From positions 5,386 through 69,385 of the forward strand of contig JBKEBE010000006.1 in assembly GCA_047973025.1 (NCBI GenBank): a DNA stretch of 64,000 nucleotides. The letters are read 5' to 3'. Made by a program: the position numbers and the translations under genes. This DNA is from Paludibacteraceae bacterium (lineage in GTDB: Bacteria; Bacteroidota; Bacteroidia; Bacteroidales; Paludibacteraceae). A model generated the notes under the pieces. The model had not been told where the DNA came from, searched no databases, and saw nothing but the letters and a program-made list of their open reading frames with translations. Numbering within the stretch: the first letter of the stretch is position 1; every line of letters begins with the position of its first letter. Below, piece after piece: positions 6,705 through 19,042 of the stretch.

Positions 6705-7300
6705 TGAAAAAGACGATGATTTTAATCGTGTGCCTTGTTGCGATAGCGGCAGTCACACACGCCCAACGGTTAATTCCGGGACAGCGGGGATTGCAATTAT
6801 CCTACATTTATCCGATTATTCCCACAAATGATAATCATTTGCAGCCCGCAAAAGCCCTCCCTACGGGAGGGTTTGGGTGGGCTTTGGCAATGACCATCAA
6901 TCACAAGCGAGCCAATCATTGGCTTTTCGGTTTAGAATACGCCAAGAAAAACTTTGCGTATCGAAACACAAAACTTCCTGTCGAAACTTTCGCTTTCGAG
7001 GGCGGATATATGCTCAATCTCTTTTCTGATGCCGGAAAGAACCTTTTGCTCAACACCGGAATTACCGCCGTTTCCGGTTACGAAACCGTTAATCGGGGCG
7101 AAAAACTTCTGCCCGACGGAGCAACTCTTTTGTCAAAAGACAAATTTGTTTACGGCGGAGCGTACCATTTGGCATTGGACGTTTTCGCAACGGACAACTT
7201 GGTGTTTTTCGTAAAAGGAAAGTGCAACGTGCTTTGGGGAAGCGATGTGGAGAGGTTTCGACCGCAGATAAATACAGGAATTAGAATAAGTCTGAACTAG
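6704..7300 (+). CDS. traO: Conjugative transposon protein TraO (outer-membrane beta-barrel-like)
   Basis: The ATG overlaps the traN TGA (TGATG). It has a signal peptide and the conserved PGQRGLQ motif, with alternating beta-strand-like sequence. Hairpin element E6 sits in frame within it. Confidence 0.75.
   Translation: MKKTMILIVCLVAIAAVTHAQRLIPGQRGLQLSYIYPIIPTNDNHLQPAKALPTGGFGWALAMTINHKRANHWLFGLEYAKKNFAYRNTKLPVETFAFEGGYMLNLFSDAGKNLLLNTGITAVSGYETVNRGEKLLPDGATLLSKDKFVYGGAYHLALDVFATDNLVFFVKGKCNVLWGSDVERFRPQINTGIRISLN
6853..6883. repeat. Hairpin element copy E6 (hairpin then arm), inside the traO coding sequence
   Basis: Sequence is agccctccc-tac-gggaggg + tttgggtgggct. It translates in the traO frame as ..KALPTGGFGWAL.. 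Confidence 0.8.
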
Positions 7301-7358
7301 GATTTATGTGATTTTTATGATTAAAAATGATTTTGTAAAACAATAAAAATGACTAAAA

Positions 7359-7808
7359 ATGAAACTAAAAAGTAAAATAATCAATAATTTATGGGTGGTG
7401 GGAGTGCTACTCATTGCCGGGTTTTGTCTATCTGCTTGCGATAACGAGCTGGATGTTCAGCAGGTGTATGAATTTGATATTCGCACGATGCCAGTGCGTA
7501 AAGAAATCCGCCAAAACGAAACCGCTGAAATCCGTTGTTCGCTAATCGAGAAAGGAAGTTTTTCCGATAATCGCTATACCATTCGTTACTTCCAATCAGA
7601 AGGATTTGGCGAACTTCGTTTAGGCAAAAACGGCGAAGTCTTTCTGCCTAATGACCGATATCCGCTTCCGGACAAAGAATTTCGACTGTACTACACTTCC
7701 CGCTCCAACGAAAGCCAGACCTTCGAGGTAGTGGTGGAAGATGGATTTGGAAATCAGAGGAGGTTGGAGTTTGAGTTTAGTGCTCAACGAGAAGAAATTA
7801 GGGAGTAA
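7359..7808 (+). CDS. traQ: Conjugative transposon lipoprotein TraQ (DUF3872-like)
   Basis: 149 aa with a lipobox (LSAC). The motifs TMPV, EIRC, YTIRYFQ and FRLYYTS resemble Bacteroides TraQ. Confidence 0.7.
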   Translation: MKLKSKIINNLWVVGVLLIAGFCLSACDNELDVQQVYEFDIRTMPVRKEIRQNETAEIRCSLIEKGSFSDNRYTIRYFQSEGFGELRLGKNGEVFLPNDRYPLPDKEFRLYYTSRSNESQTFEVVVEDGFGNQRRLEFEFSAQREEIRE

Positions 7809-7849
7809 AATCCCGATTTGTTTCATACTTTAATATTTAATAAATGCAG

Positions 7850-7885
7850 AAAAGCCCTTGCACGTGATGTGCTGGGGCTTTTTGG
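7850..7885 (+). terminator. Stem-loop after traQ, a possible end of the tra operon
   Basis: aaaagccc ... gggctttt with an inner gcac/gtgc pairing, followed by a T-run. Confidence 0.45.
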
Positions 7886-7902
7886 ATGAAATTAACCCAT
7901 TG

Positions 7903-8424
7903 TCAAATTAGAGAGGACCAGATTTTTAATCTTTTTTCTACTTCTCCAACTAACTTTTGATTGTTTCGAAAAAGAAAATTAGAAGCTATTAGTTGATTTA
8001 ATTTAGATATTGCGTCTCTTGGTGATAAAATTCCCGTTTCAACAAATTTATCAAAAATCCAAAACATACCGTGATACTCAATCTCTTTGTTTTTGGCGTA
8101 ATTTCGAAGAGTTTTATCACTGCTTAAAACGCAAGCGTTAATTTTGTTGGCGACGTGTAACACAGATTTATCAGCTTCTGATAAAGACTTTGGGTAATTT
8201 TCAAAGTAAATTTCAACAAAGTCTTGTTCGTGTAAATTATGAATAAAAAGCCTGCCAACGGACTGATAGGCTTGAAGTATTTCTTGTTGTTCCGAATACA
8301 ATTCGTATAAAACTGCAGAAGTAGTATGTATCTCTAATTCAAAATTGAAAAAAGATTTTGTCAAACCTATATCATACAAATCAATGAAAATATTAGCATC
8401 GGTAACGGCAATTTTTACTTTCAT
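7903..8424 (-). CDS. PIN-like (DUF4411-like) putative nuclease, second gene of the HTH-ImmA operon
   Basis: 173 aa. The N-terminal VTDANIFIDL looks like the first acidic motif of a PIN fold. Later acidic motifs are SEADKS and LSSDKTLR. It starts 21 nt after the upstream stop. Assignment is by eye only. Confidence 0.5.
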   Translation of the reverse strand: MKVKIAVTDANIFIDLYDIGLTKSFFNFELEIHTTSAVLYELYSEQQEILQAYQSVGRLFIHNLHEQDFVEIYFENYPKSLSEADKSVLHVANKINACVLSSDKTLRNYAKNKEIEYHGMFWIFDKFVETGILSPRDAISKLNQLIASNFLFRNNQKLVGEVEKRLKIWSSLI

Positions 8425-8445
8425 AGCTTAACACATATTATGAAA

Positions 8446-9510
8446 TTAAAATACCATTTGGTGTTCCTTTCTGAAATCAGCCAAAGATTGATTGTTCAAA
8501 GAAGCTGCTTTAGACATTGAAATTTGGTCTTCAACTAATGCACGGAATAAAAGTTGCTCAAAGCGGTTAGATTCTTCTGCTCCATTATATTCAACAGGTT
8601 CGTCTACTTTCCAATTCATCTGCTTTATTAAGAAAAAGAATTGTTTAGTATAGTGGTCGTTGATAATGCCACAGTCTTTGGCTCTCATAACTACGGCTTG
8701 CATAGAAATACCGTATTGTTTTTTGATATTGCCCAACTCATTTATTGAAAGTTTATTTCTGTGTTCGCCTAACTCTGCTTTAAGAGTTTTTTCAGGTAAC
8801 AACATTGCGCCTGCAAATTGATGACACAAAGTTTCTTTTTGTCTTTCGGTAATATCGCCAAACTTCAAAAGTAAGTGAGCCAATTCATGCAACAAAGTAA
8901 AACGTATTCTATCAGGCTTATTTATCTTGTTAGCGTTATATGCCACAACAGGAATAGTGTCGTTTACACGAGTTTGCAAGCCGTCAAAATCATCATTAAC
9001 TCTTAAATCAACAACTTTAATATTTTTATCCTCCAAGAGTTCAACAATATTGAAAATAGGACCATAACCCAACCCCCATTTTTCTCTTAAAAGTTCTGCT
9101 GCTTTATTTACCTGTTTATACTCAGTTACAATTTCAAAGTCTTTTAAGTGATCTTCAAACTCATTTGGTAAGCCCAAAATTTCTTCTAACTCTAAATACC
9201 GTGATAGTTTTTCCTTAGTGATTTCTTTAATTATTGAAGCCTCTTTTTGTGGCATTTTGCTCAATTTTCGAAACCCTACTTCACCCAACTCCACTTTAGT
9301 ACTTCTGAAAAAATAATCAGGATTTACATTTAAAGCCTTACTTAATAAGTTGATTTTTTCGGTATCAGGAATGACTTCACCTTTCTCGTAACGATGCAAT
9401 GCTTGACGAGATAATTGATTATCCAAGGCATCAGCCAAATCCTGCAATGAAAAACCTTTCATCAAACGGGCTGACTTAAAGCGTTCTGAAAAAATCTCTT
9501 TCATTTCCAT
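8446..9510 (-). CDS. Fusion protein: N-terminal XRE-family HTH plus C-terminal ImmA/IrrE-type zinc metallopeptidase
   Basis: 354 aa. The HTH region is FKSARLMKGFSLQDLADAL...LHRYEKGE. The HEXXH motif is LLHELAHLL. Confidence 0.85.
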   Translation of the reverse strand: MEMKEIFSERFKSARLMKGFSLQDLADALDNQLSRQALHRYEKGEVIPDTEKINLLSKALNVNPDYFFRSTKVELGEVGFRKLSKMPQKEASIIKEITKEKLSRYLELEEILGLPNEFEDHLKDFEIVTEYKQVNKAAELLREKWGLGYGPIFNIVELLEDKNIKVVDLRVNDDFDGLQTRVNDTIPVVAYNANKINKPDRIRFTLLHELAHLLLKFGDITERQKETLCHQFAGAMLLPEKTLKAELGEHRNKLSINELGNIKKQYGISMQAVVMRAKDCGIINDHYTKQFFFLIKQMNWKVDEPVEYNGAEESNRFEQLLFRALVEDQISMSKAASLNNQSLADFRKEHQMVF

Positions 9511-9530
9511 TGTTATTTTGAATTATAATG

Positions 9531-9538
9531 CAAAGATA
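9531..9538 (-). promoter_or_regulatory. Candidate Bacteroidota -7 box for the HTH-ImmA operon
   Basis: Plus-strand caaagata equals TAtcTTTG on the minus strand, about 20 nt upstream of the ATG. The spacing to any -33 TTTG is not ideal. Confidence 0.4.
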
Positions 9539-9735
9539 ATACTTTTTAGTTTACAAACACACAAAAACAATACCACTTTTCACACTATTTTGCTAACTAT
9601 GACAGAATTTTATGTTGACAAGACTGTATTTTACTGACAATTTTACCGAATTCAATCAAAAACTGAAAGTTTACAATACATAGTTGACATATTTACATAA
9701 AAATTTGATTTTGTAACTGAATGGAATAGTATTTG

Positions 9736-9743
9736 TACATTTG
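9736..9743 (+). promoter_or_regulatory. Candidate -7 box (TACATTTG) for the DUF2188-CBASS operon
   Basis: It matches TAnnTTTG, and a TTTG lies ~22 nt upstream. It is ~50 nt upstream of the first ATG (9792). Confidence 0.4.
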
Positions 9744-9749
9744 CAGACG

Positions 9750-9766
9750 GGTGCAAATAGGTGCAA
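9750..9766 (+). promoter_or_regulatory. Direct repeat GGTGCAA-ATA-GGTGCAA, a candidate operator
   Basis: Two exact 7-mers with a 10-bp period lie immediately downstream of the candidate -7 box. Confidence 0.35.
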
Positions 9767-9791
9767 CCATAACTTTTAATATTGTATAACG

Positions 9792-10013
9792 ATGAAGAAA
9801 AATCAACATGTAGTGCCGCACGAGAAAGGTTGGGCGGTAAAAGGCGCAGGCAACGAAAGGAACACAAAAATTGTACCTACACAAAAGGAAGCTATTGACA
9901 TAGCAAGGGAGATTGCCAAAAATCAGCAATCAGAATTAGTAATTCATAACAAAGAAGGAAAAATTAGGGAAAAAGACAGCTTTGGAAATGACCCACGAGA
10001 TATTAAGGGATAG
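9792..10013 (+). CDS. DUF2188-family small protein, first cistron of the CBASS-like operon
   Basis: 73 aa. The pattern HVVPHEKGWAVKGAG...KEAIDIAREIAKNQ..ELVIHNKEGKIREKDSFGNDP matches the DUF2188 consensus as I recall it. Its stop lies 3 nt before the patatin ATG. Confidence 0.7.
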   Translation: MKKNQHVVPHEKGWAVKGAGNERNTKIVPTQKEAIDIAREIAKNQQSELVIHNKEGKIREKDSFGNDPRDIKG

Positions 10014-10016
10014 CAG

Positions 10017-11003
10017 ATGAAGTTTAAAATTTTATCAATAGACGGTGGCGGAATAAAGGGGCTTTACTCCTCTACCATTCTTGAACATTTGGAAAGTAAA
10101 TTTGGTGGTAGTTGTTCCGACTACTTTGATATGATTTGTGGAACTTCAACAGGTGGTTTGATAGCTTTGGCTCTATCACAAAAAATCCCTGCTTCTGAAA
10201 TTTCAAAAATCTACACCAAACACGGAAAGGATATTTTTCCGAAACAAAATAAGTTAGTCGGTTTGCTCCGTCAAACTTTATGGAAAGGAAAATTTAAAGA
10301 CGAAGCATTGAAAAACGTGCTTACTGAAATTTTTGGCGAAAAGACTATTGGGGAAAGTAACAACCTGCTTTGTATCCCTTCCTATTCATTTACTGATGCT
10401 CGTCCGTGGATTTTTAAGTATGACCATAAGGAAGGCAATTTAGACAGGGATAATAAAGCAAGATATGTTGATGTGGCTTTGACGACATCGGCAGCACCTA
10501 CCTATTTGCCTTTGGCAGAAATTGATTTGTATGATTACAAGCAATTTATTGACGGTGGTGTGTGGGCAAACAATCCGTCTTTACTCGGGTTGGTTGAAGC
10601 CCTAACTTATTTTGTTGGCGAAGGAAAACCTTATGACAGTATTCAAATACTTTCTGTAAGTAGTTTGAACAACACTGCAGGAAAGCCAACAGGACTTAAA
10701 CGAAACAGGTCGTTTATACAATGGCGAAATGATTTGTTTGAAACATCTTTGATTGGGCAAAGCCATTTTTCGCATTACGTTCTCTCTCAATTTCACAACC
10801 TAAATTCTATGCCTGTGGAATATATTCGGATTCCTTCCGAAGCAATTTCTGCCGAACAACAACATTTGGTTCAACTTGATGTTGCAACCGACAAGGCTCT
10901 GCACCTAATAAGGGGTAAAGGAAACGACAGGGGAACTTTGGCAAGCAAAGACCCTGAAATTGCAAAATTTTTTCAATCACAAAAAACATATAAAATAAGA
11001 TAA
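10017..11003 (+). CDS. capV: Patatin-like phospholipase, CBASS effector (CapV-like)
   Basis: 328 aa. It has the oxyanion motif DGGGIKG, the nucleophile motif GTSTG and the catalytic Asp motif DGG (FIDGGVWANNP). Confidence 0.85.
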   Translation: MKFKILSIDGGGIKGLYSSTILEHLESKFGGSCSDYFDMICGTSTGGLIALALSQKIPASEISKIYTKHGKDIFPKQNKLVGLLRQTLWKGKFKDEALKNVLTEIFGEKTIGESNNLLCIPSYSFTDARPWIFKYDHKEGNLDRDNKARYVDVALTTSAAPTYLPLAEIDLYDYKQFIDGGVWANNPSLLGLVEALTYFVGEGKPYDSIQILSVSSLNNTAGKPTGLKRNRSFIQWRNDLFETSLIGQSHFSHYVLSQFHNLNSMPVEYIRIPSEAISAEQQHLVQLDVATDKALHLIRGKGNDRGTLASKDPEIAKFFQSQKTYKIR

Positions 11004-11005
11004 TT

Positions 11006-12004
11006 ATGGCAAATTGTAATACACACTTTGAAGAATACAATGGTAAAATCAGATTGACTGACACCCGTAGAAAAAGCCTTATAGGCTCTCGTAATGAATT
11101 GCGAAATAAGGTTAGGAAGTGGTTTAAGGAAAATAAACCTAATGAAACAAAACCAAAGTTTAGCGGACAAGGTTCAATGTCTATAGACACAATCATAAAC
11201 CCAATTCCACGAAGAATAAAAGATGGGAACGAAGAAATAACGGCTCTTTATTATGATGTAGATGATGGTATTTACTTTCAAGGCGATAAGGAGCCAAATG
11301 ATAGACCAACTCCGACTACATACCATAGTTGGATTTATAATGCTGTAAAAGGACATACGGACAAAGACCCTATTGATAAAAATACTTGTATCAGAACTTT
11401 GTTTGCTGACGGTCATAATATAGACCAACCTATTTACTACAAAAAAGGCGATACACCTCAACTTGCTCACAAGGAGAAAGGTTGGATTGATAGCGACCCA
11501 AAAGCATTTATAGATTGGTTTGAAGAAAAGGTAAAAAAAGAGCCTCAACTAAGAAGGTTGGTGCGTTATGGAAAAAGTTGGTGCGACAATCGTGAATTTG
11601 TAAACACAAGTAAGTCAATGCCATGCGGTTTAATCATTACAATACTTTTTGCGGAAAATGCAGTTTATCGTAAAGACCGTGATGATGTAGCTTTGAAAGA
11701 AACACTACTTGAAATTCAGCGAAAACTCAAAATCTCGTTTGAGTGTAAACGTCCAACAACTCCAAAAGGTGAAAATTTGTTGGCAAATTATGGTCATAAG
11801 GATTATTTTATGGATTGTCTTGCCAAGTTCATTGACGATGCCACGAAAGCATTGCAAGAAAAGAATTTCAAAAAGGCAACTGAACTTTGGCGTAAGCATT
11901 TAAGTGACAGGTTTCCGTTGGGTGAAGATAAGGACGATTCCGCAAACGCTTCGGCAGGACTTGGAACTATTATCACGCCTACAACAAAACCTTATGCAGA
12001 ATAA
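11006..12004 (+). CDS. cGAS/DncV-like nucleotidyltransferase (CD-NTase)
   Basis: 332 aa. It has GQGS (the G[S/G] motif), YDVDDGIYF (the hDxD motif), a later Asp in HNIDQPIYY, and the typical DPKAFIDWF and RLVRYGKSW segments. The C-terminus is ..TKPYAE. Confidence 0.8.
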   Translation: MANCNTHFEEYNGKIRLTDTRRKSLIGSRNELRNKVRKWFKENKPNETKPKFSGQGSMSIDTIINPIPRRIKDGNEEITALYYDVDDGIYFQGDKEPNDRPTPTTYHSWIYNAVKGHTDKDPIDKNTCIRTLFADGHNIDQPIYYKKGDTPQLAHKEKGWIDSDPKAFIDWFEEKVKKEPQLRRLVRYGKSWCDNREFVNTSKSMPCGLIITILFAENAVYRKDRDDVALKETLLEIQRKLKISFECKRPTTPKGENLLANYGHKDYFMDCLAKFIDDATKALQEKNFKKATELWRKHLSDRFPLGEDKDDSANASAGLGTIITPTTKPYAE

Positions 12005-12678
12005 TGAAAAATGTGCAATTTGAAAAAGACATATTACTTGTTCCCGATTTCTTTGACAAGTTGAGTATTGTTGAAGAGAACAATGAACGATTTTTAAAAG
12101 GTTCGTTGGACATTATTGACGGAACAGGAAAATTATGGGATACTTATGAAGTGGAAATTAAGGGTAGTGAAAGCTATCCTTATTCTTTCCCAAAACTGTA
12201 CGAAACAAACAATGCCTTTCTGAAAAACGCGGATTGGCATGTTTACGAAGATGATTTTTCTTGTTGTGTAGATGTGCCAATGAGCGAAAAAATCATTTGT
12301 AAAAATGGTTTGAATGTTTCTGACTACATAAAACAATATGCCATACCCTATTTAGCAAATCAAACATACAGAAAACGAGAAGGGTATTATTTATATGGTG
12401 AGTATTCACACGGAATTTTAGGCAGACTTGAATTTTATCAAAGCAGGTTGAAGGCGAAAAATTTAGCTGAACTTATTAAGATGTTTGATTTGATAATAAA
12501 TGACTATAATCCTGACAGAAGGGCAATGTGTCCTTTTTGTTATAAAGAAAAATTTAGAAGGTGTCATCGTGATGCGTTTAGGGAATTACAAGCAATAAAA
12601 GAATATTTAGCATATGATAGATTGATTTTGCTAAAGATTTTAAAGACAAACCCCGATTTTCAATTACCAATTATTTAA
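12004..12678 (+). CDS. Prokaryotic E2-like (UBC-fold) protein with a C-terminal Cys/His cluster
   Basis: 224 aa. The pattern YEVEIKGSESYPYSFPKLYE...WHVYEDDFSCCVDV resembles the E2 layout (YP..P, then H, then catalytic Cys). The C-terminal CPFCYKEKFRRCH is SEC-C-like. The ATG overlaps the CD-NTase stop (TAATG). Confidence 0.6.
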   Translation: MKNVQFEKDILLVPDFFDKLSIVEENNERFLKGSLDIIDGTGKLWDTYEVEIKGSESYPYSFPKLYETNNAFLKNADWHVYEDDFSCCVDVPMSEKIICKNGLNVSDYIKQYAIPYLANQTYRKREGYYLYGEYSHGILGRLEFYQSRLKAKNLAELIKMFDLIINDYNPDRRAMCPFCYKEKFRRCHRDAFRELQAIKEYLAYDRLILLKILKTNPDFQLPII

Positions 12679-12926
12679 GCATTGTTTAATGATTTTTTTT
12701 CGTCCAATGTAATTGTGATTATGATAAAATGTTTATACAGTAGTGATGCTTTTTATCGAAAAATAAATTCCACTCCGTCCCGGCAAATTTCTTTTGCTTC
12801 TTTTTTGTCCGCCTTTTTTAGTCAAAAAAAGAAGTCCCCGAAACTTTTCAGCTCCAAGGACTTCAAGAAAACAGTCAGAAATAAATGAAATAAAAAAGTC
12901 CATTTCCTTTCTCCTTATGGGGAAAG

Positions 12927-12948
12927 TACCCGAAGGGGGATAGGGGCT
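12927..12948. repeat. Hairpin element copy E7 (degenerate; hairpin then arm)
   Basis: Sequence is taccc-gaa-ggg + ggataggggct. The pcfJ stop codon (12947-12949, minus strand) lies in the arm. Confidence 0.5.
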
Positions 12949-14230
12949 ACGCACTCATCCGCTTTCTAATCAAATGTGCATTCCGATTTACGAGTGAAAT
13001 AATTTGGTCGTGCCATTCCGTATTTTGGTTGCAAACGCCACGTGCTTGCACCACTTGAAAGGTCGCTAATGAAACTTCAACGGTCTCAATGCGTTTGCCG
13101 TTAATCTGTGCCGAAAGAATAAGCGTGTCCGTTTTTAGAAAATATGCGTTGGCATACACACAGTGTTTCAATATGTTACCTTCTTCGAAAAACTCGTTTA
13201 CATCCTGCAAAACCCGCACGTGCAACTGTCCGTCCGAAAATTCCAATCCCAAAAACTTCGATTTCAGCTCTTGATACTGCGTTTCGTTTTTCAAAATTTG
13301 TTCCCGCTGTTTCTCTTTTTCCTGCCGTTTCTGCCAAGCCTGTTTTTTGCGCATCAGGCGGTCGTGTTCGGCTCTCAAATCCGCCGGGCAGACAAATTTG
13401 GCGTTCGATAAATCCTTGCCGAAAAACTGCAATAAATCCACATAATCGCACCATATCGACACATCCGAAACGGTGTACTTGTTGCGAATGCAAATGCGGA
13501 TACTTGCCCAATAATCATCCAAATTTTGCGAACGTTTGATGGAAAAATATCTCAACAAATCAATCTGTCCCGATTTCAGCAAAGTTTCCATTCGGCTGTC
13601 AGACAAGATATTTCGGAAAAAGTTTCGGGGCGAAAGTCCGTGAAAATCACCACGAAAACCGTTGCGTTTCACTTCGGGAATAAAGCGTTTGTGCGGATAA
13701 ACGGCTGTGGGCGAAACAAGATGCGCCTGCCGTTCTTGGCGGATTTCGAGGTCGGACGACCAATTCCAAACATCGTAATACAGCACGCTCATACATCGTG
13801 AACGTGCCATTATCACGGACTTTCCGCTCGGCGATATCCAATGTTGCACCACTTCACGGCAGTAAAGTTGCGCCGGATTGCCCACTTGGCAGTTTTTCTC
13901 CAAAAAGAAATACCGCAAAACTTGAAAACCACCGCAAACGGTGTATATTCCGTAATATTCGGCTTGCTTGAACGACTGTTTTCGGCTGTCGATTACTTTC
14001 TCTTTCGTGCCACAATGCGGACACGTACATCCGCAAATCGTTTCGTACAAGGCGTGTCCGCTTTTCCACGAATGTCCGCACTCCAAACACGTCAGCGTGC
14101 CGTTTTTCAGCCGTCGGGCTTGCTGTTTAAGGCAGTTTCTGAATGCCCAATCCTGCTGTTTTTGAGTGATTGGGGCAAGTCGCTTACTTTGTTCGGCGAC
14201 TTCCTTTTGTAGTTTCGTTCTCGGTTTCAT
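12947..14230 (-). CDS. pcfJ: PcfJ-like protein (conserved conjugative-element accessory protein)
   Basis: 427 aa with a Cys-rich N-terminal region (CLECGHSW...CGCTCPHCG). It resembles the PcfJ-like proteins seen in Bacteroides CTns. Confidence 0.65.
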   Translation of the reverse strand: MKPRTKLQKEVAEQSKRLAPITQKQQDWAFRNCLKQQARRLKNGTLTCLECGHSWKSGHALYETICGCTCPHCGTKEKVIDSRKQSFKQAEYYGIYTVCGGFQVLRYFFLEKNCQVGNPAQLYCREVVQHWISPSGKSVIMARSRCMSVLYYDVWNWSSDLEIRQERQAHLVSPTAVYPHKRFIPEVKRNGFRGDFHGLSPRNFFRNILSDSRMETLLKSGQIDLLRYFSIKRSQNLDDYWASIRICIRNKYTVSDVSIWCDYVDLLQFFGKDLSNAKFVCPADLRAEHDRLMRKKQAWQKRQEKEKQREQILKNETQYQELKSKFLGLEFSDGQLHVRVLQDVNEFFEEGNILKHCVYANAYFLKTDTLILSAQINGKRIETVEVSLATFQVVQARGVCNQNTEWHDQIISLVNRNAHLIRKRMSA

Positions 14231-17412: not shown

Positions 17413-18642
17413 TTACAAAGATGTTGGCTTATAATTTAGTTTGTTGAGTTTTCCCGCCAATATATTCATATCATTTTGAATTTTATTTGTGGTAACGCGG
17501 GCGTAGATTTGCGTTGTTTTTATGTTCGTATGGCCCAGCATTCGAGAAACTGTTTCAATAGGAACGCCCTTGGAGAGCGTAACTGTGGTTGCGAAACTAT
17601 GGCGCGCAATGTGAAATGTTAAATTCTTGTCAATTCCACATAAATCGGCAATTTCCTTTAAATAATCGTTTACTTTTTGATTACTTGGAACGGGAAATAA
17701 ATGTTCATCTACACGCAGTGGCTCGTATTTCTTTATCAACTGCATCGGTATATCCAATAAGACAATATTGCTTCTCACATCGGTTTTTTCACGCTTGGTA
17801 TTGATCCAAAAGCTTCCGTTTTCTTGAACGATGTTATGTATTGTCAATTGTTTTACGTCGATATAAGCCAATCCTGTAAAACAAGAAAAGATGAAAATAT
17901 CCCGCACACGTTCCAGTCTTTCCGAAGGAAGTTTTTTGTTGAGTATTTTTTTGAGTTCTTCGTCCGTCAAATACCCCCGGTCTTCTCGTTCCATCCTGAT
18001 TTTGAAGTTGGCAAACGGATCGAAGTGCAGGTAGCCGGAATTTCGGGCAAAAATCACGATGGTTTTGAAGCGGCGCATTGTACGGGCAACGGTGTTCGGC
18101 TTGCATTCACGAGTAGTTTTCAGGAACAAATCAAATCCGTTAACAAACTCATAATTCAGCTCATTTAGACGAATATCATCACGACCATATTTATGCTGAA
18201 TAAATTCTTTTAGTCGTTTAGTGGTGGTTTCATATTTTCCATAAGTGGATTTTTTTCGTGTAATACCTACTTGTGCTTTGAAATTTTCGTTGTATTTTTC
18301 TGCTGTTTGTAATAGGGTGGTAATTTCACCCTCATTTTTCCCTTGTAGCACAGCCTTGTATTTCTCCATACTCAATTCGTTATCGGCAAAATAAAGTTGA
18401 TTGAAAAGCGAATGTAGTTGGCTGGTAAATTGGTCTATCTGCAGATTGCTTTCTACCGCTTCCTGTGTCCGACCTTTCAAGTGGCTGGTTTTAGCATTCC
18501 ACAAAGATACATTGACATTTATTCCGGTACTCAAAACAAAATATTCTTTACCCAAATAAATTCTTGCCATCAGAGGTGACTTACCTTCTTTGTTCTTGTA
18601 GTTGTTTCTAATGTAGTAAGAAACCTTAAATTGTTTACTCAT
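17413..18642 (-). CDS. int: Tyrosine recombinase/integrase (Bacteroides CTn type)
   Basis: 409 aa. The catalytic signature is HIARHSFATT (HxxR) plus LGHTNIKTTQIYARV (the nucleophilic Tyr). An N-terminal arm-binding-like region is present. Confidence 0.9.
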   Translation of the reverse strand: MSKQFKVSYYIRNNYKNKEGKSPLMARIYLGKEYFVLSTGINVNVSLWNAKTSHLKGRTQEAVESNLQIDQFTSQLHSLFNQLYFADNELSMEKYKAVLQGKNEGEITTLLQTAEKYNENFKAQVGITRKKSTYGKYETTTKRLKEFIQHKYGRDDIRLNELNYEFVNGFDLFLKTTRECKPNTVARTMRRFKTIVIFARNSGYLHFDPFANFKIRMEREDRGYLTDEELKKILNKKLPSERLERVRDIFIFSCFTGLAYIDVKQLTIHNIVQENGSFWINTKREKTDVRSNIVLLDIPMQLIKKYEPLRVDEHLFPVPSNQKVNDYLKEIADLCGIDKNLTFHIARHSFATTVTLSKGVPIETVSRMLGHTNIKTTQIYARVTTNKIQNDMNILAGKLNKLNYKPTSL

Positions 18643-19027: not shown

Positions 19028-19042
19028 ATATTTTATGGTATG

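Follow-up and report, generated by a model that had tools for sequence, protein, structure and literature searches.

The window analysed here, a 64,000-nt stretch of a Paludibacteraceae bacterium genome (GenBank assembly GCA_047973025.1, contig JBKEBE010000006.1, positions 5,386 to 69,385), carries a compact island of six genes between the transfer genes of a conjugative transposon (CTn). The island consists of two joined modules: a portable cassette comprising a regulator gene, a gene for a PIN-like protein and about 250 nt of control DNA, and a divergently oriented operon identified from its sequence as an E2-only antiphage signalling system based on cyclic oligonucleotides (CBASS). The regulator combines a helix-turn-helix (HTH) domain with an M78 peptidase domain, and the CBASS operon includes a nucleotidyltransferase of the cGAS/DncV-like type (CD-NTase). 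In window coordinates, with protein lengths in amino acids (aa), the island comprises:

7903-8424, minus strand: PIN-like gene, 173 aa
8446-9510, minus strand: HTH-M78 regulator gene, 354 aa
9511-9791: divergent intergenic control region, 281 nt
9792-10013, plus strand: DUF2188 gene, 73 aa
10017-11003, plus strand: CapV patatin gene, 328 aa
11006-12004, plus strand: CD-NTase gene, 332 aa
12004-12678, plus strand: E2-like gene, 224 aa

A check of the open reading frames (ORFs) returned the six genes at the coordinates given in the original prediction, with the same tight packing inside the operons (gaps of 21, 3 and 2 nt and a 1-nt overlap). The ORFs, together with Pfam matches of the flanking genes to TraQ (PF12988) and PcfJ/PcfK (PF14284/PF14058), also confirmed that two divergent operons lie between traQ and pcfJ/pcfK. 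The AT-rich character of the block, which had been judged by eye and taken as a sign of separately acquired cargo, is borne out by the GC profile. GC content is 0.45-0.54 in the tra genes, 0.30-0.38 from about 7750 to 12950 and 0.42-0.47 beyond, with sharp breaks at about 7.8 kb and 12.9 kb. The mean is 0.345 for positions 7850-12750, compared with 0.469 in the left (tra) flank and 0.404 in the right flank, and individual island genes range from 0.307 (PIN) to 0.392 (DUF2188), against 0.433 for traQ and 0.460 for pcfJ. The identities proposed for all six genes also proved right, as judged from Pfam, PADLOC, curated NF models and, for the PIN protein, a structure model.

On the basis of these matches, the DUF2188-CapV-CD-NTase-E2 operon can be classified as a type II-short (E2-only) CBASS. 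CapV belongs to the patatin family (PF01734), scores 350.7 bits with NF041079, NCBI's curated model of the cGAMP-activated CBASS lipase (cut-off 200), matches the PADLOC Effector model PDLC00758 at 4e-110, and has two CapV entries with solved structures, 9wn1 and 9kh7, among its matches (about 1e-43 to 1e-42). The CD-NTase is recognised by PF21654/PF18144, by the cGAMP-synthase (cGAS) model NF041078 with 223.5 bits (cut-off 150) and by the PADLOC Cyclase model PDLC00774 (2e-120); its closest solved structure is 7ljo (7e-56), which is CdnB of Bacteroides fragilis (BfCdnB) (PMC10442399). The catalytic residues G56-S57, D84, D86 and D140 of the GS...DxD...D signature are invariant in the alignment, and the enzyme is CdnB-like and predicted to synthesise cyclic GMP-AMP (cGAMP). 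Its tail reads ...AGLG-TIITPTTKPYAE, with a glycine about 12 residues before the end and a conserved P-[W/Y]-A-[E/K] terminus. The E2-like protein, a long-form, E2-only analogue of Cap2, matches the PADLOC E2 model PDLC00865 (1.7e-58) over residues 4-203; a CC pair at positions 87-88 and a SEC-C-like CxxC...CH cluster (C176/C179/C187/H188) are conserved in its homologues. No E1 or JAB gene appears in the list of ORFs within the island. The DUF2188 protein is identified by PF09954 (1.6e-26) and by the PADLOC candidate model PDC-S16 (9e-37). Neither this protein nor E2 has a solved relative that could be found by sequence.

The first gene of the opposite operon encodes a fused XRE-HTH and M78 (ImmA/IrrE) zinc peptidase, predicted to act as a repressor and antitoxin. 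Pfam places HTH_3 (PF01381, 3e-12) at residues 12-67 and Peptidase_M78 (PF06114, 1e-13) at residues 161-277 of a single polypeptide, unlike the two-protein CapH/CapP. In PADLOC, 14 RmrA models match it at 1e-29 to 7e-46 (best 6.8e-46), while capP matches at 2.5e-16 and capH at 6e-12. Residues invariant among 24 homologues include H208-E209-x-x-H212, E240, C229 and [F/Y]80-R81.

The 173-aa protein encoded downstream is, according to its structure model, a PIN nuclease of the COG2405/DUF3368 type, predicted to be a toxin or a second effector. Its AlphaFold model has a mean predicted local distance difference test score (pLDDT) of 87, and the top Foldseek matches in the PDB are all PIN domains (Nob1 at 2.5e-5, VapC4, HARP RNase P and VapC). 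The acidic residues D9, E41, D103 and D125 are invariant in 26 homologues. The sequence signal is weak, being confined to a precomputed Pfam match to PF11848, a match to PADLOC PDC-S70 (1.6e-6) and, in PDB sequence/profile searches, a VapC6-labelled Nob1 entry at 0.17; the same searches with the regulator and the PIN protein did not retrieve VapBC52. The PIN protein matched none of the PADLOC RmrT models, and no homologue of it was found in phage records.

A one-genome-per-species scan revealed relatives of the PIN protein in at least 182 species, and the best 80 loci were examined (loci are numbered with the prefix L where they have to be told apart). The regulator gene lies directly upstream of the PIN gene in 79 of these 80 Bacteroidota species loci, the exception being cut by a contig end, so the regulator and the PIN gene form an obligate pair. 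The proteins of this cassette are 70-95% identical across Bacteroidota families. Genes of the related loci were called by a simple longest-ORF rule; with this rule, 54 of the 66 loci that have at least 2 kb of upstream DNA (82%) carry a divergent neighbour upstream of the regulator, at a short and fairly constant spacing, which is very improbable under random orientation (binomial p = 2e-7). The divergent gene begins a recognisable defence operon in 36 of the 66 loci, and 21 of these operons are CBASS of types II, II-short and III. The cargo is distributed as follows:

Type II CBASS with Cap2/Cap3/NucC: 10 loci
CapV-cyclase-E2: 5 loci
The window's cyclase and E2 with a Cap15-like effector: 2 loci
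Type III CBASS: 2 loci
Another cyclase with a short E2: 2 loci
Pycsar: 2 loci
Multiubiquitin/E1/DUF6527 "6E" systems (ubiquitin-like 6E): 10 loci
Gene associated with prokaryotic Argonaute (pAgo): 1 locus
E1/E2/JAB proteins: 2 loci

The 281-nt region between the two operons contains several conserved elements (site positions such as -45 and -111 are relative to the start codon of the regulator gene; -7 and -33 name promoter elements):

9531-9538, minus strand: -7 box of the regulator promoter, TATCTTTG
9549-9556, minus strand: TTGTAAAC site, which overlaps the -33 TTTG of the regulator promoter and recurs near -45 in most related loci
9614-9621, minus strand: TTGTCAAC site, at -111
9669-9676, minus strand: TTGTAAAC site, at -166, adjoining a TGTCAAC half-site, with a counterpart at -165 to -185 in many related loci
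9736-9743, plus strand: outward -7 box, TACATTTG, predicted promoter of the DUF2188-CBASS operon
9751-9765, plus strand: conserved element GTGCAAATAGGTGCA, downstream of the outward promoter and ahead of the first cargo gene, a putative operator or 5' leader

Across 77 sequences, the 330 nt upstream of the regulator contain the motif TTGT[AC]AAC at a density of 5.1 per kb, compared with 0.2 per kb in the loci overall, a 25-fold enrichment. The motif's typical positions are about -45 and -165 to -185, and in a more distant subgroup it forms inverted pairs 29 nt apart. The promoter consensus of Bacteroidetes is TTTG/TAnnTTTG, and this consensus was used for promoter reading, a sigma-70 scan being unsuited to promoters of this group. 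A reverse-strand TAnnTTTG, directed outward, lies at a near-fixed distance from the regulator start, about -211 elsewhere and -233 in the window; among close loci, 14 of the 28 that have a divergent neighbour possess it, against none of the nine without one (Fisher p = 0.007). With up to three mismatches allowed, the element GTGCAAATAGGTGCA recurs in the window and 14 close loci (15 sequences), which have different first cargo genes, and is absent wherever a divergent gene is missing. Conserved intergenic blocks are likewise common to loci with different first cargo genes. Nucleotide similarity to two loci with other or no cargo (L023 and L026) ends inside the intergenic region, at 9728 and 9765, which indicates that the control region travels with the regulator-PIN pair. 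The co-occurrence of the outward promoter with cargo is the strongest evidence for our inference that the cargo receives a regulated promoter from the cassette.

The exchange of cargo can be followed most closely in L021, which shares 85-86% nucleotide identity with the window over 7918-10012 and 10978-12672, and in which CapV has been precisely swapped for an LRAT-like gene and a Cap15-type effector with two transmembrane segments (2TM). The CBASS genes also occur without the cassette. A metagenome scan from the cyclase side found 29 loci with a cyclase at least 69% identical to that of the window; the pair is present in seven of them and absent from at least 11 others with enough upstream DNA. 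In three of the latter, which encode close relatives of the cyclase and E2 with a Cap15-like effector, the same divergent position is occupied by a stand-alone Peptidase_M78 gene and two small genes:

L117, 1377-3223: stand-alone M78 peptidase set
L120, 5490-7196: stand-alone M78 peptidase set
L124, 5057-6766: stand-alone M78 peptidase set

The two small proteins encoded beside the peptidase in these three loci were not recognised by Pfam; a sigma-factor identity considered for the small genes in L117 and L120 was not confirmed by it. The original prediction would have been refuted by an independent and random association of the two operons. In this respect the outcome is divided: the operons are separable in both directions, whereas their association is not random and the divergent layout is strongly favoured. 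The two operons are separable modules that are combined non-randomly.

The cassette is also found on RefSeq plasmids of several phyla, with relatives on proteobacterial, cyanobacterial and Rhodothermus plasmids; several of these copies sit on conjugative plasmids, and on Runella and Sulfitobacter plasmids the cassette is divergent from CBASS. The plasmid pTHAF9_b of the alphaproteobacterium Roseovarius sp. THAF9 (L192; NZ_CP045406.1, 52162-56745) has the same six-gene order as the window, with a PIN gene and an XRE/M78 regulator gene opposite genes for DUF2188, CapV, a nucleotidyltransferase and a small E2-like protein. The regulator is 33%, DUF2188 60%, CapV 34% and PIN 27% identical to the window proteins. 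The Roseovarius locus, annotated only generically, differs in its 399-aa cyclase, which belongs to another clade and has no BLASTP match to the window cyclase, and in its short E2 of 158 aa. Because the cyclases do not match, the six-gene layout evidently recurs with non-orthologous CBASS parts. On three other plasmids (L194-L196, from Sulfuricurvum, Shewanella baltica and Vibrio cholerae pNDM-116-14), the regulator gene reads in the same direction as type I restriction-modification genes and closely precedes them. It is followed by an annotated PIN gene on the Sulfuricurvum and Vibrio plasmids and not on the Shewanella plasmid, and a Fic gene accompanies the restriction-modification genes on the Shewanella and Vibrio plasmids.

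Between the cassette and its cargo, small first genes recur. DUF2188 is the first cistron ahead of varied cargo in L021, L027, L030, L064, L066, L088 and L100, and occupies the same place without the regulator/PIN cassette in L142-144, L176 and L189; judging from these neighbourhoods, it appears to be one of several interchangeable small leader genes. Three further small genes recur in this first position: one for an LRAT/NlpC-like protein and one for an HNH protein with a membrane segment at its C terminus, both of 139 aa, and one for a DUF1508 (YegP-like) protein. Such genes, DUF2188 included, separate the defence cargo from the cassette or from other regulators and combine freely with different cargo (L021, L027, L030, L050-L054, L069, L080, L081, L088, L089, L097, L099, L111-L116 and L121-L126). 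At the DNA level, the 5' end of the DUF2188 gene (window positions 9795-9863) is 80-87% identical over about 62-70 nt to alphaproteobacterial plasmids (NZ_CP128603.1, NZ_CP045406.1 and NZ_CP015096.1), which is high for such distant hosts and could reflect either the very conserved KNQHVVPH..GWAVKGAGN peptide or a cis-acting element.

The element that carries the island is a CTnDOT-type conjugative transposon with its right end at about 19,030 (window positions 19028-19033) and a gene for a 409-aa tyrosine integrase at 17413-18642 on the minus strand. Copies in other samples (L001, L002 and L011) are 98-99.98% identical up to the right end and then continue into different chromosomal genes, among them a tRNA-synthetase gene and an Orn/Arg decarboxylase gene, while the window has yet another flank. 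The differing flanks of near-identical copies show that the transposon has inserted at at least three sites. A PIN protein 100% identical to that of the window is annotated in a Paludibacteraceae metagenome-assembled genome, and the identical six-gene block was found in about 90 metagenome sample blocks, which represent one element (98-100% identity) and are not independent evidence. Exact-match look-ups with the CD-NTase, the regulator and TraQ returned only copies of the same transposon, with no independent neighbourhood and no empty traQ-pcfJ site, and a search of plasmid DNA gave no close copy of the island. An Rfam scan of 7300-13300 yielded nothing above chance.

Variants of the transposon in other samples (L004, L007, L011 and L015/L103) differ at or near the island. 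In one variant CapV was called at 288 aa rather than 328, in a second the cyclase call is 337 aa long and overlaps E2, in a third pcfJ is missing beside the island, and in a fourth traO is cut by an insertion sequence with a DDE transposase. In the window, a GC-rich hairpin (aaaagccc...ggggctttt) lies at 7850-7882 between the converging traQ and PIN genes; it resembles a bidirectional terminator and was not listed by the consensus scan.

The most likely reading, and a moderately probable one, is that the regulator, as a repressor-antitoxin of the CapH-CapP-fusion/VapB52-like kind, controls both the PIN toxin and the E2-only cGAMP/CapV CBASS. In the uninfected cell, the HTH-peptidase would bind TTGT[A/C]AAC-type sites in the 281-nt intergenic region, repress its own operon together with the outward CBASS promoter, and neutralise the PIN nuclease. 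Phage infection or DNA damage may then activate the peptidase, as single-stranded DNA (ssDNA) does in the case of CapP and VapB52. The activated peptidase would be expected to cut its own linker near [F/Y]80-R81, an event that could both derepress the CBASS operon and free the PIN RNase. From what is known of the family, the CD-NTase would be held or primed via its C-terminal tail by E2 and would produce cGAMP, which would activate the CapV phospholipase and lead to destruction of the membrane and abortion of the infection.

Several observations weigh against control of both operons by the regulator. Twelve of the 66 loci (about 18%) have no divergent gene, the divergent genes of the others include several of a housekeeping or mobile kind (the transporters CitMHS and SSF, a transposase, an integrase), and the regulator is co-directional with restriction-modification genes on the gammaproteobacterial (Vibrio and Shewanella) and Sulfuricurvum plasmids. 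The loci are related by descent, so that counts such as 54 of 66 overstate their independence. The TTGT[AC]AAC site at -45 overlaps the -33 element, and its conservation may partly reflect the promoter rather than an operator. As for the regulator protein itself, no GAF domain was found in a Pfam search, its AlphaFold model is poor (pLDDT 57, from a shallow alignment in which all sequences are at least 79% identical), and sequence/profile matches to the PDB are weak (IrrE at E = 0.03-0.13, CapP at 1.3).

As the main alternative, two independent systems could stand side by side, a RosmerTA/VapBC52-like toxin-antitoxin (TA) pair that defends on its own and a self-regulated E2-CBASS, with no cross-talk between them. 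Defence genes are found clustered in islands in any case, RmrA is treated in PADLOC as the antitoxin of a stand-alone TA, and RosmerTA defends alone. The loci without a divergent gene or with non-defence neighbours form a sizeable minority and suggest that the regulator-PIN pair also works on its own, and close relatives of the CD-NTase and E2 manage without the pair in at least 11 loci with room for it. Nevertheless, we regard full independence as rather unlikely, since the divergent orientation prevails and its spacing is short and fairly constant, the cassette bears the outward promoter and the element downstream of it at a fixed distance from the regulator start, both being present only with cargo, a CapP-like M78 peptidase fills the same slot in sister loci, and control of CBASS by CapH/CapP placed in this way has been shown (Lau et al. 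2022).

Two further explanations start from the mobile element and from the island as a whole. The regulator might be an ImmR/ImmA-type switch of CTn excision or transfer, with PIN stabilising the element as an addiction module. The founding example of such a protein pair is ImmR/ImmA of ICEBs1, the tra and pcf genes on either side of the cassette belong to a mobile CTn with at least three insertion sites, and several plasmid copies are on conjugative plasmids. This explanation is very improbable, given that Tra genes occur within 10 kb in only 2 of 80 related loci, that the cassette is compositionally foreign to the CTn, and that its neighbours elsewhere are defence operons; the CTn presumably also has regulatory regions of its own elsewhere. 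Least probable of all is an obligate immune system of six components, not described before, made up of all the island genes. The recurrence of the identical block in metagenomes, the retention of both halves in seven close metagenomic relatives and the same gene order on the Roseovarius plasmid speak for it, but the metagenomic copies are a single element, the cargo varies freely beside the conserved pair, the effector is swapped within an 85% identical backbone in L021, the CBASS core and DUF2188 each occur without the pair, and every part matches an already catalogued family. The neighbourhood analysis largely refutes this obligate reading.

Dual control of the PIN toxin and the CBASS operon by one regulator might exemplify something more general. 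We suggest only tentatively that the pair and its control region of about 250 nt may act as a plug-and-play alarm cassette with two outputs, in which a single self-cleavage would free the PIN RNase and switch on whichever immune operon is inserted at the outward promoter (CBASS, Pycsar, ubiquitin-like 6E or pAgo-associated), the small leader genes (DUF2188, DUF1508, LRAT-like, HNH-TM) adding a further functional layer. Taken with the relatives on proteobacterial, cyanobacterial and Rhodothermus plasmids, this would amount to a general organising principle, one that has not been described as such. The locus itself is a fairly ordinary defence locus assembled from known modules, and it reveals no immune mechanism of a new kind. 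Mildly new are the very conserved, portable cassette that serves many types of cargo and the recurrent small leader genes, with DUF2188 and three others now flagged as recurrent first cistrons. If the regulatory interpretation is true, the island would illustrate in compact form how Bacteroidales of the gut and of anaerobic digesters silence a costly abortive-infection system carried on a mobile element and induce it only on alarm, with the same sensor also arming a PIN nuclease. The loci compared here provide a natural promoter-swap set, in which one cassette is combined with six or more types of cargo.

The configuration of the island had been proposed as undescribed on the strength of three unusual points, and precedents exist for each of them, in addition to the same layout on the Roseovarius plasmid. 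The co-transcription of a single-polypeptide HTH-peptidase with a PIN gene has been described before. COG2405/DUF3368 PIN genes co-transcribed with HTH-DUF955 fusions were reported by Matelska et al. 2017, who proposed stress-triggered self-cleavage (PMC5499597). The HTH/IrrE-peptidase antitoxin of Mycobacterium tuberculosis VapBC52 cleaves itself with ssDNA at an FR motif and frees an anti-phage PIN tRNase (2026; PMC13273310). A vapC-like gene with a CapH-CapP fusion upstream of DISARM was also recorded by Lau et al. 2022 (10.1101/2022.04.27.489752). The DUF2188 gene as first cistron, the second unusual point, is anticipated by DUF2188 operons linked to CapH/CapP-type regulators (10.1101/2022.04.27.489752), by the DUF2188 gene beside the studied CapV-CdnA CBASS of Pseudomonas Pa011 on an integrative and conjugative element, and by the PADLOC candidate PDC-S16. 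The Cys/His cluster of E2, taken for an addition, falls within the PADLOC E2 model and is shared by every long-E2 homologue; it is a family trait.

In Lau et al. 2022, divergently encoded upstream CapH/CapP repress CBASS and respond to ssDNA, and a table in the same work lists a "Type II short, phospholipase, CapH-CapP fusion" CBASS (10.1101/2022.04.27.489752). The island resembles CapH/CapP in having an XRE HTH and an M78/IrrE peptidase upstream of and divergent from a defence operon. It differs in that its regulator fits PADLOC RmrA far better than capP/capH, to which the match is only moderate, and in that a PIN gene accompanies the fusion in every case; a search for a GAF domain in the regulator gave none, while CapP has a C-terminal GAF and a cysteine switch. 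The fused CBASS examples listed by Lau et al. are actinobacterial, unlike the island.

RosmerTA comprises an RmrA antitoxin of the HTH and Zn-peptidase type with variable toxins and defends alone (Millman et al. 2022; NetFlax, PMC10440598). The island shares with it an RmrA-type antitoxin, the two-gene antitoxin-first layout and the variability of partner toxins across the family, whereas the island PIN protein matches no RmrT model and the described RmrT include membrane-depolarising proteins, not PIN nucleases. VapBC52 and the gene pairs of Matelska et al. resemble the island in that a single HTH and IrrE-type peptidase polypeptide is encoded just upstream of a PIN nuclease. The conserved [F/Y]80-R81 after the HTH has a position comparable to that of the FR motif of VapB52 (F75-R76), and in both a conserved cysteine lies between HExxH and the Glu ligand, with a different Cys-to-HExxH spacing. 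Searches gave no sequence-level match to VapB52 or VapC52, and VapBC52 is not described as controlling a neighbouring immune operon.

The CBASS operon has its nearest counterparts among E2-only systems (Serratia SmCdnG-SmE2, PMC12948482; B. fragilis CdnB, 7LJO), which combine a CD-NTase, a lone E2 and a cyclic-nucleotide-activated effector in one operon, as here. SmCdnG is an enzyme of about 400 aa from clade G with a C-terminal helix/beta-sheet E2-binding motif, whereas the island cyclase is clade-B-like and 332 aa long. In comparison with the SmCdnG-SmE2/BfCdnB type, the glycine of the island cyclase lies about 12 residues before the end rather than at the terminus, and the island E2 is the long form of about 220 aa that bears the CxxC...CH cluster.

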